Shown: piece by piece, positions 11,008 to 16,231 of the stretch
Layout: every line of letters begins with the position of its first letter
Numbering within the stretch: position 1 is the stretch's first letter
DNA from: a virus
Taxonomy: Duplodnaviria; Heunggongvirae; Uroviricota; Caudoviricetes
Strand: one strand, 5' to 3'
Virus record (IMG/VR): IMGVR_UViG_3300047445_000122
DNA: 16,231 bases
Position numbers and translations under genes: made by a program
Notes under the pieces: model-generated
Databases searched by the model: none
What the model was told of the DNA's origin: nothing
What the model saw: only the letters and a program-made list of their open reading frames with translations

Positions 11008-13737
11008 TTACACGAAGAAGTTCATCACTGATGCCTGAGGTTCATGACTCCATTTAATCGCCACCAAGAAGTTGTTCAGTGGATCGACAAAATACTTATT
11101 GAACGATGCCGACTTATCCACCCACTGGTCCATCCCGAACTCAGGACTCAGGAACTCAGGGAAGCCAAAGACCTCCATGCCGTGCGGCGCTCCCTTCTTC
11201 AGGGGAACCATCAGGATTTTGTCGCCACTGACGATCAGCTTCTCATCCAGCTTCTTTGCATAGATGATGCGGTTGTGGTTGATCGCAGCCTTGAGTTGAG
11301 GCGGACACTTCGGAAGCCAGGTGCCCTTGATTGGGTCATCCAGGTACTTCTCCAGGTTGTTGATCGACCGGGGAGCCGCGATCTGGTGAACCGGGAAGGA
11401 CATGAACTCTGCCTTGACGGCCTGGACCTTCTCATGGATAGCGCTCTCAGGTTGAGTCAGAGCCAGCTTGTAGCACTCCTTCAGCCAGTTGCGGCAGAAT
11501 GCTGGATAGTCAGACTTCTTCGCCTCCAGACCCACATACTTCAGCTTCGGCTCCTTGTAACGCACTCCCTCAGAGTCAGCCACCATCAGGGCATAGCGCT
11601 TCTTGGCGGTGAAGATGCCCACATTGAACAGGGTCTCGCGTTTGAACACCAGCTTCGGAGCGTAGCAGTTCAGAGCATTCGACAGTTCCTTCGCCCACTC
11701 CAGCAGCTTCGGTTCAATCTCCTCAGTAAACATCTTGTCCATGAAGTCGATGGTCTCGACATCGGTCATACCAGCACAGACCTTGCTGATGTATGGATCC
11801 AGGCACATGTAGATGGAGTCGGTGTCGCCGGTGATGATGAAGTTCTCACCAGTTGTACCCAGCTTCGCATTGAAGTAGTCATTCATCTTCTTCATGGTAT
11901 AGCGGAGACCGACTTGACCGCCAGAGGTGATGCCCTCAGCGATGCGAATGTCGAAGTATTCGCGCAGCCAGCGGTTCGCAATCGCGCCATAGCCGCCGTT
12001 CGCCACAATCTTGATGCCCCACTGAACGTTGTGCTTGGAGGCGATCAGACCTTCCAGAATCTCAACTGCAGCCTCCTCATACGCATCCAGACCCTTCAAG
12101 TCAACCAGCTCTTGCTCGTGCTTCAGCATTTCCTTCTTCACGACCTTACGCTCAGCATACAGCTCCTCGAACGTCTCAGACAGAATGGATTGCTTATCGA
12201 GGCGGAAGAAAGCACAGTTTGGAGTCATGGTCAGGCCCAGCTTCTTCAGGGTCTTGAACTCATACGCCTCTTCCCAGTAGAACTCATTGATCAGAGCACC
12301 CTGGCGGATGTGTTCCTTCAGTTGACGAATGTATGGTGTAGGTAGCTCTTGGTCCAACTCCTTCACGAGCGCCATACGGACATCATAGGCTTCACGATCA
12401 GACAGGATCGTTTCTGGACCCATGTTGAATTGCATCGCCATATGCGGATACAGAGCATTCGCATCAATCGACACACCCCACTTGTAGCGTCCCGGCTTCG
12501 GTTCCTGGACAAACGCGCCCAGATACTGAGTATCACCCTGGTATGGGGACTTCAGCTCAGGTTCCTGGCCCCGTGCGTGCAGCTTCGCATACAGCATAGC
12601 CGACCACGGTTGAACCGTACCCATGGTGTCTTGAGGGTTGCAGTGGCACAGGTACGCCAGAACATACACCAGCTCGAAGAACTTGTTGACCGCCTCCATA
12701 CGCACGACCAGATTCACGTCTTGGATGTTGTATTGGATGTACTTCTGGTAGTTGGTGAAGTACAGGGTGGTGAGGGACTTGGCCTCATCATAGTTCAGCT
12801 TTTCCTCGTTGAGGTAGTGCTTCGCCGCCGTGTTCAGCTTCTTGTTCTCCAACTCGACATAGCCGTGCTTCTCAACCAGAGCCTTGAAGTCCAGCAGGGT
12901 CACACCATAGATTTCATACTCCACGGTGTCTTTACCGAAGGAGCCGGTGAAGGTGCGTTGGCGGATGATGTTCCATGGGCTGAACTTCTTGGCCCAATCG
13001 TCACCCAGGATTTTCTTCACACGGTTGATGATGTACACCACGTCAAAGGTGTCGCTGTTCCAGCCGGAAATGAAGTCAGGCTCGATACCAGACATCAGAT
13101 TCACGAGGGCGATCAAGAGCGCACGCTCATCATCAAAGCCCTTGTACACCACCTTCAGCCCCCCGGTCTTGGGTTGGGTCTTGTCGTGGACATATGTGCC
13201 GAGTCGGACACCCTTGAAGACTTCCAGACCCAGTGTGATGAACGCCTTCGTTTTCGTGTCGTACACAGTCACGGCGGTCACAGGGTAATTCGCATCTTCA
13301 GGCTCCGGGAAAGGCCCACGAGTCATATTCACGATCTTGCCGCTGGCGTCCACTTCGATGTCGCCGGATTCAACTTCAATGTCCAGGATAGCCCCACGGA
13401 CATGCTTGAACACGTGCTTGATCTTGCCTGGGTAGTTGTTGGCGATGTATTGATACGCCACATCGCGACAACCGTACATCTTGAAGCCCTCAGTGTCCTT
13501 GTAGCGCTCCTGGAAGTCTTCAAACTCGTTAATGGTGTCGAAGTCCATACGCTCTAAGGGTTCATCCCTCAGACTCCGGGCGACCGCCGCAGCGACATTG
13601 TTGGTCTTCATGTACAGGAACGGTTTGAACTCCTCTTGGAATCGCACACGTTCACCAGTTACCTGGTCGATTGCTCGTACATACACTTTGTTGCCTCGTT
13701 TGAAGACATCCGAGTACAACAGGTTTTCATTGGCCAT
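11008..13737 (-). CDS. gp43: B-family DNA polymerase with 3'-5' exonuclease
   Basis: ExoI LDIEV, ExoII GWNSDTFDVVYIINR, ExoIII YNIQDV; Pol motifs IDANALYP, KIVANGGYG, GDTDS, KKRYAL; C-terminal clamp-binding QASVMNFF. AGGAG SD. Confidence 0.98.
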   Translation of the reverse strand: MANENLLYSDVFKRGNKVYVRAIDQVTGERVRFQEEFKPFLYMKTNNVAAAVARSLRDEPLERMDFDTINEFEDFQERYKDTEGFKMYGCRDVAYQYIANNYPGKIKHVFKHVRGAILDIEVESGDIEVDASGKIVNMTRGPFPEPEDANYPVTAVTVYDTKTKAFITLGLEVFKGVRLGTYVHDKTQPKTGGLKVVYKGFDDERALLIALVNLMSGIEPDFISGWNSDTFDVVYIINRVKKILGDDWAKKFSPWNIIRQRTFTGSFGKDTVEYEIYGVTLLDFKALVEKHGYVELENKKLNTAAKHYLNEEKLNYDEAKSLTTLYFTNYQKYIQYNIQDVNLVVRMEAVNKFFELVYVLAYLCHCNPQDTMGTVQPWSAMLYAKLHARGQEPELKSPYQGDTQYLGAFVQEPKPGRYKWGVSIDANALYPHMAMQFNMGPETILSDREAYDVRMALVKELDQELPTPYIRQLKEHIRQGALINEFYWEEAYEFKTLKKLGLTMTPNCAFFRLDKQSILSETFEELYAERKVVKKEMLKHEQELVDLKGLDAYEEAAVEILEGLIASKHNVQWGIKIVANGGYGAIANRWLREYFDIRIAEGITSGGQVGLRYTMKKMNDYFNAKLGTTGENFIITGDTDSIYMCLDPYISKVCAGMTDVETIDFMDKMFTEEIEPKLLEWAKELSNALNCYAPKLVFKRETLFNVGIFTAKKRYALMVADSEGVRYKEPKLKYVGLEAKKSDYPAFCRNWLKECYKLALTQPESAIHEKVQAVKAEFMSFPVHQIAAPRSINNLEKYLDDPIKGTWLPKCPPQLKAAINHNRIIYAKKLDEKLIVSGDKILMVPLKKGAPHGMEVFGFPEFLSPEFGMDQWVDKSASFNKYFVDPLNNFLVAIKWSHEPQASVMNFFV

Positions 13738-13823
13738 ACTTTCTCCTGTTCATGGGTTGGTCAATTTGGATTTATGGGAATGGCTGACTCAGACCTACAG
13801 GGCGGCATTGCACCGCCAGAGCC

Positions 13824-13861
13824 AGAACCCGGATTATAGCGCCATACGTGGACGCCGGTAA
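13824..13861 (-). promoter_or_regulatory. Putative sigma70-type early/middle promoter of polymerase (TTTACC...TATAAT-CCGGGTTCT)
   Basis: Perfect TATAAT on the minus strand (plus 13833-13838), TTTACC 18 nt upstream; the 15-mer is repeated exactly at 16052-16066. Confidence 0.65.
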
Positions 13862-13909: not shown

Positions 13910-14422
13910 ATGGCCGGATATGTAAATTACGATAACGCCCAGTCAAACAGATGGTTCGCCGTCATCAACAACCTACCAGGTGTGGAGTTGAGGTTGCACA
14001 ATTTCGTGATGCCCGGTCTCTCCATTGGTAGCGACAGTATCATACACCGTGGGGACAACATGGTCACAATCCCCGGCGACGCAATCAACATCGAGAACAT
14101 CACTCTCCAATTCCTGGTGGACTCGAAGTATCACAACTACTTCCAAGCCTATCGCTGGATGCGCTCCAACGTAGCCAACAACGCCCCAGAGGTGAGTGAC
14201 ATCACTGTGACTCTGCTCGACAACCAAGGCAATCCACAAGGCACCCAAGTCGTGTACAAAGAGTGCTACCCTCTGGCTCTGGATCAAGTTGAACTGGACT
14301 CCGGTGGCGAGGTACATGACATCATCGGTACATTGACGATAGTTTGTAATGACCTATCCATGCAAGTCAAGCTGGATGAGAAAACCATCCTGTCCTACCC
14401 GGACGATTACGGTTCAGTATAA
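13910..14422 (+). CDS. gp3: Tail tube terminator / tail completion protein, T4 gp3-like
   Basis: 170 aa; MPGLSIG, IPGD...ITLQFLVDS.Y.NY...YRWM, DITVTLLDN, YPLALDQVELDS parallel T4 gp3. Late promoter, and adjacent to uvsY/exonuclease. Confidence 0.8.
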   Translation: MAGYVNYDNAQSNRWFAVINNLPGVELRLHNFVMPGLSIGSDSIIHRGDNMVTIPGDAINIENITLQFLVDSKYHNYFQAYRWMRSNVANNAPEVSDITVTLLDNQGNPQGTQVVYKECYPLALDQVELDSGGEVHDIIGTLTIVCNDLSMQVKLDEKTILSYPDDYGSV

Positions 14423-14457: not shown

Positions 14458-15204
14458 TCAGTCCTTGAAGCCGCCTTCGGCCTTGAACTTGCGAGCCATT
14501 TCCATCACCTTTGGTACCCAGTCAATCGTGTTCTCCACAACGACTTGACATTCACGATGTACATGGTCTTCTACTGCCAACAGCACCACAATCTTCTTCG
14601 GCAGAACTCCATACATACACTTGTGCATGATGGCGTAGATGGTACACTGGATGAAGTAGTCCTCAATGTCCTCCCGCTTGCTGAGGCGGTTCTTGTTCTT
14701 GAAGTCGATGATGGCAAGTTCGCCGTTCCAGATACCACACAAGTCGACACGACCGGCGAGACCCAGTTCAGCTGAGTACAGGGCGTGCTCTGAGTAGCAT
14801 ACAGCGTCCAGCTTGCGATCAATCACCCGGCGAATCTGGTTGAACATGAATCGATATTGATTCGCATCCATCTCATTCCAGTTCGGATCGTTGGTCACAT
14901 ACAACTCCAGACATTTGTGTACCAACTCACCACGATGACAGGCCCGTTCGGAAATGGCTTGGGCTTCTGCCTCTCCGCCTTCAAGACCGGCCACCCACTT
15001 GGCTCTCCATGAGTCGTCCTCGAAGTATCCAAGGAACGTTGTGACCGATGGGCGCTTGACGCCGTCCGGGCAGTGGTAGTAGCGACGATCATTGACATAC
15101 GTGGTCTCGCCCCAAGCTGACTCCGGGATGATGAGGAGCGGCGGTTGTTGCTTGAAGGTCTTGCGTTTGCCCTTGAGGGCTTTCAATTGGTCCAGACTTG
15201 GCAT
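14458..15204 (-). CDS. PD-(D/E)XK (RecB/Cas4-like fold) exonuclease typical of T4-like phages
   Basis: RPSVTTFL, RGELVH, LAGRVDL...IIDFKN, YFIQCTIYA. ATG 15204 with a GGGGA SD is preferred over the TTG at 15210 used by the ORF track. Confidence 0.85.
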   Translation of the reverse strand: MPSLDQLKALKGKRKTFKQQPPLLIIPESAWGETTYVNDRRYYHCPDGVKRPSVTTFLGYFEDDSWRAKWVAGLEGGEAEAQAISERACHRGELVHKCLELYVTNDPNWNEMDANQYRFMFNQIRRVIDRKLDAVCYSEHALYSAELGLAGRVDLCGIWNGELAIIDFKNKNRLSKREDIEDYFIQCTIYAIMHKCMYGVLPKKIVVLLAVEDHVHRECQVVVENTIDWVPKVMEMARKFKAEGGFKD

Positions 15205-15206
15205 GA

Positions 15207-15632
15207 TCAAATCCCCAATTGTGTCTTCTGGAAGTCGATGGCCAGACGCAGGTTGAAGTTGCGCTCCGCCAGTTGCTTCTTGGAGTCTTCCAGATACTTG
15301 ACAATGCGTTCTTGCTCGTTCAAGATACCCTTCGTCTCAATCATCTTCGGATCGACCTTCAAAAGGTCAGGAATGTCCCCCTTGAGAACTGAGACCCGGA
15401 GCGGTTCTGCCTTGTACTCCTCTGCTGTCGCCTTGCCGCTGTAGTATTGAGTGCGCTTGGCCTTGACCTTCTCAAAGTTGGTGATTGTAGTCTCCAGCTT
15501 CCGAGTCTCAGTTACGTACATGCGTTGGATGGCCGAAAAGATTTTCACCTGGCGGAGGCTTTCATTGCCCAAGTTACCTGCGTCAATCTCCAGTTGTTTG
15601 TCAACTGAGTCCATGATTTCTTCAAGAGTCAT
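15207..15632 (-). CDS. uvsY: Recombination mediator protein UvsY
   Basis: 141 aa; MTLEEI..., EIDAGNLGNES, RTQYYSGK, AERNFNLRLAIDF follow T4 UvsY. AAAGGA SD. Confidence 0.9.
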   Translation of the reverse strand: MTLEEIMDSVDKQLEIDAGNLGNESLRQVKIFSAIQRMYVTETRKLETTITNFEKVKAKRTQYYSGKATAEEYKAEPLRVSVLKGDIPDLLKVDPKMIETKGILNEQERIVKYLEDSKKQLAERNFNLRLAIDFQKTQLGI

Positions 15633-15681
15633 TCTGTTTCCTTTGATATGTTAGTCCACGAAGGGAGTTGGGTGTTGCCAT

Positions 15682-15690
15682 TGTTATACT
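15682..15690 (+). promoter_or_regulatory. Possible extended -10 promoter (TGtTATACT)
   Basis: TG-n-TATACT match with no -35; could be incidental in an AT-rich patch. Confidence 0.3.
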
Positions 15691-15702
15691 GTATATATTA
15701 CA

Positions 15703-16055
15703 GGGCGAAGCCCGTTGAGCTCCGGGCAGGTGAAATTCGGACAGAACTAGCCCACAGAATCATCCCCAGTTAGGTTCAGATTCTGATGGAAGTTCTGTCC
15801 TGTTGTCCGTAACTGGAGCCAACCCGGAATAACGATTCACACTCACGTGTCGTTATCAGCGTCCACATAGACTTCGAGAGTGAAGCCCTACCGCCCCTGG
15901 ACGCAATCCCATGAAGGGAATACTAGCGGGGTTCGCATTTGGTAGTCCCTGGTATGCGAATTATAAAACACAGCGCCACGTCATAGGTGTTACCGTCACT
16001 GTGAGTTGTACTTAGGGGATTGAACCAGCAAGAATATGCTGGATAAAGGTGAGAA
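15703..16055 (-). ncRNA. Candidate structured non-coding RNA or long structured leader upstream of uvsY (family not recognised)
   Basis: No credible ORF. At least six helices of 6-10 perfect bp plus loop-complementary segments. G-U wobbles extend helices mostly on the minus strand. A TATAAT lies just upstream on the minus strand. Confidence 0.5.
16009..16015 (-). promoter_or_regulatory. Putative late promoter (CTAAGTA) on minus strand, inside the structured region
   Basis: Minus strand reads CTAAGTACAA, identical to the gp3 promoter context. Confidence 0.5.
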
Positions 16056-16066
16056 CCCGGATTATA
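16052..16066 (-). promoter_or_regulatory. Putative -10 promoter element TATAATCCGGGTTCT
   Basis: Exact 15-bp copy of the polymerase upstream motif (13824-13838), same orientation relative to a downstream replication/recombination operon. Confidence 0.6.
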
Positions 16067-16075
16067 CCCTCATGT

Positions 16076-16082
16076 CTAAGTA
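16076..16082 (+). promoter_or_regulatory. Putative late promoter (CTAAGTA) for GIY-YIG gene
   Basis: Motif copy 82 nt upstream of ATG 16165. Confidence 0.65.
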
Positions 16083-16164
16083 TTGAGTTAGAGTGAGGTT
16101 GCCGCCTCAACTCAACCAGCTAGGTCAAACTGGCTGTCCTCAATGCTTTGTATATAGGTTAACA

Positions 16165-16231
16165 ATGAACAACATGTATTACGTGTACCAATTGCGTCGC
16201 GCCGACCGCGATCAACCATTCTATGTTGGTA
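16165..16231 (+). CDS. GIY-YIG endonuclease, N-terminus only (3'-truncated by window edge)
   Basis: Manual translation MNNMYYVYQLRRADRDQPFYVG shows the Y-V-Y-x10-F-Y-V-G GIY-YIG signature. AGGT SD at 16156-16159. Alternative ATG at 16174. Confidence 0.8.
   Translation, partial: MNNMYYVYQLRRADRDQPFYVG

Follow-up and report, generated by a model that had tools for sequence, protein, structure and literature searches.

A three-copy family of structured non-coding elements in a T4-type phage genome: candidate leader RNAs read from the minus strand

The stretch of DNA analysed here (16,231 nt; termed the window) belongs to a Caudoviricetes virus genome (IMG/VR record IMGVR_UViG_3300047445_000122), and the element at issue occupies its positions 15697-16066, between uvsY and a gene for a GIY-YIG protein. 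The analysis supports the view that this element is an uncatalogued structured RNA, matching no Rfam family: it exists in three paralogous copies within the same genome, and these keep a common row of hairpins through paired mutations. The preferred reading, to which a probability of about 0.5 is attached, is that of a promoter-proximal structured leader RNA, which would be read from the minus strand, recognised through invariant loops and act in cis. An original prediction, made from the sequence of the window, had proposed an undescribed structured RNA at this place, either a non-coding RNA (ncRNA) or a cis-regulatory one; that proposal stands, the structure being kept with compensatory changes and the minus strand being favoured.

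A search of the phage's own genome with the element (termed copy c1) identified two further copies, c2 and c3 (Table 1), which are 63-67% identical over ~300 nt and have the same orientation relative to their neighbours; a covariance model built on the 3' domain (termed R1) recovers exactly three copies in the genome. All copies lie at divergent junctions and no neighbouring gene is common to all three. When the copies are compared, invariant sequence blocks are interspersed with stretches that differ wholly. Coding potential was considered as an explanation for this conservation and was rejected: no copy contains an open frame, stops occurring in all six frames of each, and translated (tblastx) similarity is equal in every frame. 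Hence conservation acts at the nucleotide level and the element is non-coding, as first supposed.

Read on the minus strand, the conserved core (~330 nt) consists of the hairpins Ha, Hb, Hc (which encloses Hd) and He, followed by the long hairpin Hf and a small GC hairpin, Hh. In Ha the stems read CACAGUG/CGCUGUG in c1, GUCAUAG/CUAUGAC in c2 and GAUAGUG/CGCUAUC in c3, with compensatory changes at 5 of the 7 pairs and a U-G pair in c1 and c3; those of Hb are wholly different between copies and all pair (compensatory changes at 6 of 7), its loop reading ACCAGGG in c1 and c2 and ACCUAGG in c3. For He the stems are AUAACGA/UCGUUAU, AGCGCC/GGCGCU and AGUGAG/CUCACU. The 17-nt loop of Hf, UGAACCUAACUGGGGAU (15778-15762), is nearly invariant across the copies, and Hh is identical in all three and thus without covariation. 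Two single-stranded segments are also conserved, namely the box CCGGGUUGGCUCC, which resembles the start of the DNA polymerase leader (CCGGGTTCTGGCTC), and a tail, UCACCUNCCC, for which no conserved pairing partner was found.

Every helix listed in the original prediction is present in the sequence and its folds at the coordinates given there. Five of them--the GGACAGAACT hairpin with its inner CAGAATC, ATAACGA/TCGTTAT, GCGTCCA/TGGACGC, TTCGCAT/ATGCGAA and, with the identity just noted, GGGC/GCCC--recur at the same places in c2 and c3 with differing sequence; the remaining two, CAATCCC/GGGATTG and CCAGCA/TGCTGG, lie partly or wholly within a 48-nt stretch peculiar to c1 and have no support from the paralogs. 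That stretch is lacking from c2 and c3 both in alignment A2 and in the anchor-based alignment described next. Ha and Hd are conserved hairpins additional to those first listed.

For the whole element, pairs were counted in an alignment anchored on the hairpin arms, which was made in Python. Over the three copies, its 59 pairs comprise 155 Watson-Crick cells, 15 G-U cells, no A-C cells and 4 other mismatches (i.e., 97.7% of cells are paired on the minus strand), and compensatory double changes occur at 27 of the pairs. When the 3' partners are displaced by 1-3 columns, pairing falls to 39-44% and the compensatory pairs to 2-4, and none of 1000 within-column shuffles matches the observed pairing values. 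MAFFT misaligns the variable stems of the 5' domain, and the tool-based count is limited to the 3' domain; in a model-derived alignment (A7) this domain, and Hf within it, is 100% paired with 4 compensatory pairs, a value reached by 6 of 500 shuffles; the slid controls of A7 are 37-52% paired. Moreover, Ha, Hd, He, Hf and Hh are recovered in independent single-sequence minimum free energy (MFE) folds of each copy. The element is therefore structurally constrained, its shape being kept through paired mutations. Relative to dinucleotide shuffles, c1 is the more stable on both strands: for the element alone z is -3.57 (plus, 15700-16060) and -3.52 (minus, 15697-16060), with none of 100 shuffles as stable, and for the whole 533-nt spacer it is -4.55 (plus) and -2.77 (minus).

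The strand of the RNA is indicated by the wobble pairs and by the folding energies, both of which point to the minus strand. As the original prediction had remarked, A-C mismatches of the plus strand become G-U pairs on the minus strand, and this is true of all 15 wobble pairs; they include a position of Hd where G-U is kept in all three copies, the closing pair of He and pairs of Hf in c2 and c3. As a result, the fraction of paired cells is 97.7% on the minus strand versus 89.1% on the plus strand. Over identical intervals the MFE of the minus versus the plus strand is -109.6/-104.0, -103.4/-97.7 and -115.1/-91.0 for the three copies.

A minus-strand TATAAT (16066-16061) lies upstream of all the helices, as was first pointed out, and the RNA is probably transcribed from this promoter box. 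TATAAT together with a CCGGGTTC box is found again, as the same 14-mer, ahead of the DNA polymerase gene (13838-13825), and versions with 1-2 changes head c2 and c3. A TTTAC(T/C) -35 box at 18 nt is present in the c2 and polymerase versions (TTTACT being T4-early-like) and absent from c1 and c3. In c2 and c3, Ha begins a few bases past the expected start site; in c1 the extra 48 nt intervene. The polymerase version is a miniature, its single hairpin having the loop GCAAUGCCGC and running into CCCUGUA, an ending that the element has too. At the other end of the element no canonical strong terminator was found in any copy: none is flagged at the 3' ends of c1 and c2, and Hh of c3 passes a loose scan only. 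The two ends of the element bear inward-facing ATATAA-type boxes, and TATAAC- or TATATT-like boxes occur at its left edge.

The core of c1 begins right after a second motif, CTAAGTA, which has 16 sites genome-wide, about the number expected by chance; at least 11 of these lie within ~80 nt upstream of a long open reading frame (ORF) on the same strand, and the ORFs so preceded are mostly structural genes. Sites in the window are at 249, 6558, 7444, 8530, 13874 and 16076 (plus) and 16015 (minus). The T4-type late promoter TATAAATA is absent from the genome, and this absence, with the placement of CTAAGTA, fits a shifted late-promoter consensus. Each plus-strand gene adjoining a copy has its own promoter-like motif between the element and its start codon (CTAAGTA for the gp6-like and GIY-YIG genes; a sigma-70-like motif for gp39), and the element thus lies outside the leaders of these neighbours.

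The nearest cultured relative of this T4-type phage is Delftia phage PhiW-14 (UvsY 45% identical), whose uvsW-uvsY spacer is ~390-520 nt long, depending on the uvsY start chosen. Part of that spacer matches, on the equivalent strand, a 554-nt spacer that lies antisense-upstream of topoisomerase II. These two leaders, S1 and S2 (NC_013697.1 25552-26070 and 136404-136957; L005:3482-4000 and L013:1905-2458), align over ~400 nt, start with TATAAT or TATACT, keep many hairpins through compensatory changes and have a conserved long-range helix between CGAGUAYCUG and CCAGGUAUG. Like c1 and c3, they are hairpin-rich paralogs with a TATAAT-type start, and their genome positions and orientation agree with those of c1 and c3; neither sequence comparison nor the covariance model detects a similarity between them and this family, except for a 15/17 match (the UGUCCGAAAUUCAC region) between the uvsY-linked copies of the two phages. 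Homology between the PhiW-14 leaders and the present family is unproven, and concerted evolution of paralogs inside each genome would fit the pattern. The PhiW-14 genome paper (PMC5977210) leaves the S1 and S2 regions unmentioned, and the words 'promoter', 'non-coding' and 'uvsY' are absent from it. Two metagenome contigs have spacers of similar appearance: a 644-nt non-coding spacer with a TATAAT box at the topoisomerase II position (L028:1420-2063; the gp39 of this contig is 63% identical to that of the present phage) and a 626-nt non-coding uvsW-uvsY spacer (L009:3375-4000). TATAAT-like boxes are present in both spacers, as are numerous GC hairpins, some of them with a UUCG or GAA(G) loop at the tip, and the former has short motifs in common with the PhiW-14 leaders.

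From these features we infer a leader that would be transcribed and act in cis as follows. Transcription would start at or a few bases past the sigma-70-type TATAAT box, with c1 having, in addition, a putative late-type CTAAGTA before its first hairpin. Each copy would end in the small GC hairpin, a weak terminator-like structure that closes the core, with an A+U-rich stretch behind it. The invariant loops and linkers (ACCAGGG, GAACCUNACUGGGGA, GGCUCC and UCACCUNCCC) may serve as recognition sites for a factor of the phage or the host, and this recognition might set the fate of early or middle transcripts, whether by stabilisation, by processing at the A+U-rich site or by a put-like modification of the polymerase. 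Copy c1 most likely forms the 5' leader of a uvsY-exonuclease message. It is the lack of a canonical terminator, along with the fact that c1 runs straight into uvsY, that places a cis-acting leader first among the readings considered.

Several points weigh against this reading or against the evidence beneath it. For the TATAAT of c1 no recognisable -35 box was found. The spacing between the element and the gene that follows on the RNA strand is variable (71 nt to uvsY, 28 nt for c2, ~260 nt for c3) and the next gene of c3 has its own strong TTTACT-17-TATAAT promoter, a poor fit to a gene-specific leader. Thermodynamic support is strong only for c1, the minus-strand z of c2 and c3 being only -0.26 and -1.77, which is not significant. 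The covariation rests on three related sequences, so that the shuffle statistics overstate significance, and the initial choice of helices, by eye and on the minus strand, may have favoured G-U pairs; among internal non-Watson-Crick positions only, there are still 10 G-U versus 0 A-C, yet these represent ~6 independent events. Finally, BLAST, motif scans and the covariance model detected no homologue outside the phage's own lineage.

The variable distance to the next gene and the separate promoter in c3, which make that copy look independent, speak for a processed, stable RNA acting in trans, which would be cleaved in the A+U-rich stretch and whose invariant loops might, for instance, let it act as a decoy or sponge. 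The hairpins at both ends of the core, followed by A+U-rich single strand typical of RNase E sites, suit such an RNA, as does the conservation of loops and linkers while stems drift; the lack of a defined terminator, of a partner protein gene among the neighbours of the copies and of any conserved complementarity (the partners proposed by RNAduplex differ between copies) speaks against it, and it is judged unlikely, though it ranks next after the cis-acting leader. More doubtful is an origin pre-primer, in which the structured transcript would hybridise at the A+T-rich patch directly 3' of the core and prime the leading strand, in the manner of T4 oriF and ColE1 RNA II. Position is what recommends this alternative: c1 precedes uvsY, as oriF does; c2 precedes gp6 with a small divergent gene, which corresponds to the place of oriE, repEA lying between genes 5 and 6 on the T4 map; all copies are at divergent junctions, and their number suits a phage with multiple origins; the positions recur in PhiW-14; the A+T-rich patch is in the genome's top 0.3%; and an RNase H gene lies ~4 kb beyond c3. 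Such coincidences of position are cheap, however, given that divergent junctions are few; c3, at topoisomerase II, has no T4 origin counterpart; no G-over-C skew was found in the RNA strand; and the T4 origins have neither a common sequence nor a requirement for RNA structure (PMC3016281). The wider proposal, that this lineage has its replication origins at the three copies and at the matching loci of PhiW-14, each encoding a folded pre-primer RNA that would start at an early or middle promoter, is at least as doubtful.

The remaining two alternatives dispense with a minus-strand RNA altogether. The copies might be a repeated intergenic cassette acting as DNA, either a module like the promoter-early stem-loop (PeSL) cassettes or a decayed mobile repeat, serving as a divergent promoter block or recombination site, with hairpins that are by-products or act in single-stranded DNA; an intergenic repeat in a T4-type genome with sigma-70-like boxes at its edge is indeed what PeSLs are (PMC2839356), and inward-facing boxes at both ends would be in keeping with this. 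Yet compensatory changes in 27 pairs of seven hairpins are unexpected for protein-binding duplex DNA, as is a strand-asymmetric wobble pattern; the element, with 330 nt and seven hairpins, is far larger than a PeSL, and the genome has no more than three copies, whose positions find matches in PhiW-14. This possibility is accordingly considered quite improbable. Least probable of all is a functional plus-strand RNA that would form the leader of the GIY-YIG/uvsW, gp6 and gp39 messages. It is true that c1 folds equally well on that strand (and the whole spacer better) and that promoter-like boxes occur at the left edge; but on the plus strand the 15 G-U pairs become mismatches, z rises to +0.10 for c2 and +0.16 for c3, the MFE is weaker in all three copies, and the promoter-like motifs of the genes in question are located between the element and the start codons. 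The order of preference is thus a cis-acting leader, a processed trans-acting RNA, an origin pre-primer and, last, a DNA cassette or plus-strand RNA.

The statement that the element matches no tRNA, tmRNA or other known RNA family agrees with the searches made. Rfam 15, whose families include riboswitches, RNase P, tmRNA, 6S, GOLLD/ROOL/HEARO, ribozymes and YrlA, yields no match in the window at gathering thresholds, and at E<=10 the sole match in 15600-16231 is a 16.6-bit chance hit to a 27-nt plant-virus pseudoknot; ARAGORN finds no tRNA or tmRNA genes in the window. In c2 and c3 themselves Rfam gives nothing. The sole match in those loci is a sub-threshold one (41.6 bits, E 8e-7) to YrlA, a Y RNA-like family, located ~900 nt past c2 on the RNA strand (L002:2500-2598, plus) and having its own TTTACG-17-TATAAT promoter at L002:1987-2015. 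A Y RNA-like or tRNA-mimic identity for the element was rejected, there being no YrlA or tRNA-like match in c1-c3 and no neighbouring gene common to the copies. Group I introns in T4 often carry GIY-YIG genes; this candidate too was rejected, the copies sitting between divergent genes, the structured strand being antisense to the GIY-YIG gene, and no match to RF00028 being obtained even at E<=10. Nor do tertiary or alternative structures find support: the only candidates for conserved long-range or pseudoknot pairings are invariant and of 4-5 bp (such as GGCUCC with the GGGG of the Hf loop, or CCCC/GGGG crossing Hc); none of them convinces, and the partners given by RNAduplex are not the same from copy to copy, so that a conformational switch and the c1-only long-range helix were set aside.

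Relatives were sought widely. A BLASTN search of 50,697 phage records with the spacer returned nothing; three exact-motif scans of IMG/VR returned nothing or one chance match inside a coding region; a two-block motif scan of metagenome (JGI) contigs returned nothing; and model R1 finds nothing in PhiW-14, L009 or L027-L029. A UvsY-based locus search in IMG/VR gave no relatives, the UvsY protein search yielding only identical contigs (with spacers 100% identical and no micro-variation) and one 48% relative. In two phages with a UvsY that are more distantly related, Acinetobacter phage SH-Ab 15599 and Vibrio phage K469, there is no long spacer before uvsY.

The window corresponds to positions 40818-57048, minus strand, of a 165,148-bp virus genome with terminal repeats, and the element lies in a 533-nt divergent intergenic region (15633-16165). 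Its RNA strand has the same sense as uvsY and is antisense to the GIY-YIG, gp6 and gp39 genes; a UvsW-like helicase gene follows the GIY-YIG gene beyond the window. The small ORFs beside the copies have no function assignable by Pfam or PHROGs. The array of small unknown early ORFs downstream of c3 is closed by a cellular-type RNase H gene (L030:4237-4803, plus; G000:C1 about 151136-151702; PF00075, E 4e-24). The A+T maximum at the 3' end of c1 has an equal in c2, which likewise is at that end of the element and there covers the orf110 start.

The original prediction had tentatively tied the element to the neighbouring GIY-YIG and exonuclease genes and to recombination. This part is not supported: the paralogs lie beside unrelated genes (gp6-like, gp39 and small ORFs), and the GIY-YIG gene has a 97-nt leader of its own, duplicated along with the gene, and is itself missing from the equivalent PhiW-14 and L009 spacers. 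Positions 16069-16209 (the leader and first codons) have 77% identity with the leader and start of another GIY-YIG gene of this genome (L004, about G000:C1:156483-156551), whose leader likewise has CTAAGTA and a hairpin; the two proteins are 40% identical to each other. Gene and leader look like a mobile endonuclease cassette carrying its own late promoter, and with the GIY-YIG gene being a separate insertion, no link of the element to homing or recombination is shown.

Table 1. Coordinates of the element's parts, its paralogs and neighbouring features (window positions unless a locus is named)
Feature	Position	Strand	Remarks
TATAAT -10 box	16061-16066	minus	start of predicted minus-strand transcript
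48-nt stretch, c1 only	16004-16052	minus	CCAGCA/TGCTGG hairpin (16042-16025) and CTAAGTA (16015-16009), 5 nt before Ha
Hairpin Ha	15969-16003 (16003-15997 with 15975-15969)	minus	5'-terminal in core; 7 bp, ~21-nt loop
Hairpin Hb	15932-15960	minus	7 bp; loop begins ACCAGGG
Hairpin Hc	15859-15904	minus	7 bp, enclosing Hd; 4 compensatory pairs
Hairpin Hd	15887-15882 with 15875-15870	minus	3 compensatory pairs
Hairpin He	15828-15857	minus	7-8 bp; 5 compensatory pairs; closing G-U in all copies
Single-stranded box CCGGGUUGGCUCC	15815-15828	minus	GGCUCC invariant in three copies
Hairpin Hf	15739-15800	minus	long; 9 + 11 bp with internal loop
Single-stranded tail UCACCUNCCC	15722-15735	minus	conserved; invariant in alignments A2 and A3
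Hairpin Hh, GGGCUUCGCCC	15703-15713	minus	terminal GC hairpin, then CUGU
A+T-rich patch	15673-15702	minus	directly 3' of RNA core; 73% A+T over 30 nt, genome top 0.3%
Copy c2	L002:1278-1606		between 108-aa unknown ORF and gp6-like baseplate gene
Copy c3	L003:1259-1589		between array of small unknown ORFs and topoisomerase II large-subunit gene (gp39)
Polymerase mini-version	13796-13838	minus	same promoter and initial box, one hairpin, then CCCUGUA
DNA polymerase	11008-13737	minus	
gp19-like tail-tube-family protein	13910-14422	plus	weak, sub-threshold Pfam match
PD-(D/E)XK nuclease	14458-15210	minus	
uvsY	15207-15632	minus	gene downstream of c1 on RNA strand; Pfam PF11056, E 4.4e-12
GIY-YIG (seg-like) gene	starts 16166	plus	
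GIY-YIG cassette	16069-16231	plus	separate, outside RNA element; own leader 16069-16165 with CTAAGTA (16076) and hairpin

Large structured RNAs without an assigned function are seldom met with, and new biology has come from them time and again; three paralogs that, at ~65% identity, keep seven hairpins and a handful of invariant loops provide unusually clear internal evidence for one; the counterpart leaders in the cultivable PhiW-14 make its function approachable at the bench. Should the elements merely be stabilising leaders, they would be a modest addition to the catalogue of phage RNAs, from one uncultured lineage so far. Should they be origins, or control the early replication and recombination operons, they would bear on how T4 origins are defined and on how early transcripts are controlled; as origins they would be the first of T4 type with a common, recognisable signature of sequence and structure.

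Among known systems, the paralogous putL and putR sites of phage HK022 encode cis-acting structured antiterminator RNAs of ~70 nt, with two stem-loops, just past the early promoters. The present element is similar in being a structured RNA near a promoter, in more than one copy per phage genome, and different in that no sequence or structural similarity to put RNAs is seen. ColE1 RNA II offers another likeness, namely a folded RNA of several hundred nucleotides ahead of an A+T-rich site. In T4, the promoter region of uvsY constitutes oriF, iterons mark oriE in the vicinity of repEA, and oriE, oriF and oriG are all at points of transcriptional divergence; for the T4 origins a middle promoter and an adjacent unwinding element suffice, with no common sequence (Kreuzer and Brister 2010, PMC3016281). 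Thus c1 resembles oriF as a site at a divergence point where a promoter would drive a transcript upstream of uvsY; in the minimal oriF and oriG (~100 bp), however, the unwinding element is adjacent, whereas the A+T-rich patch of the element is ~330 nt downstream of its promoter-like box. A further parallel is with the PeSL cassettes of the T4-type phages RB49 and phi1 (Arbiol et al. 2010, PMC2839356), which likewise are modules repeated in the intergenic DNA of T4-type genomes, an early promoter of sigma-70-like type being joined there to an RNA stem-loop. PeSLs, however, are small and numerous, consist of a promoter and one terminator stem-loop, and are clustered in hyperplastic regions, whereas the element described here is ~330-370 nt long, has seven hairpins with invariant loops and no canonical terminator, and occurs in three copies beside core replication or structural genes.

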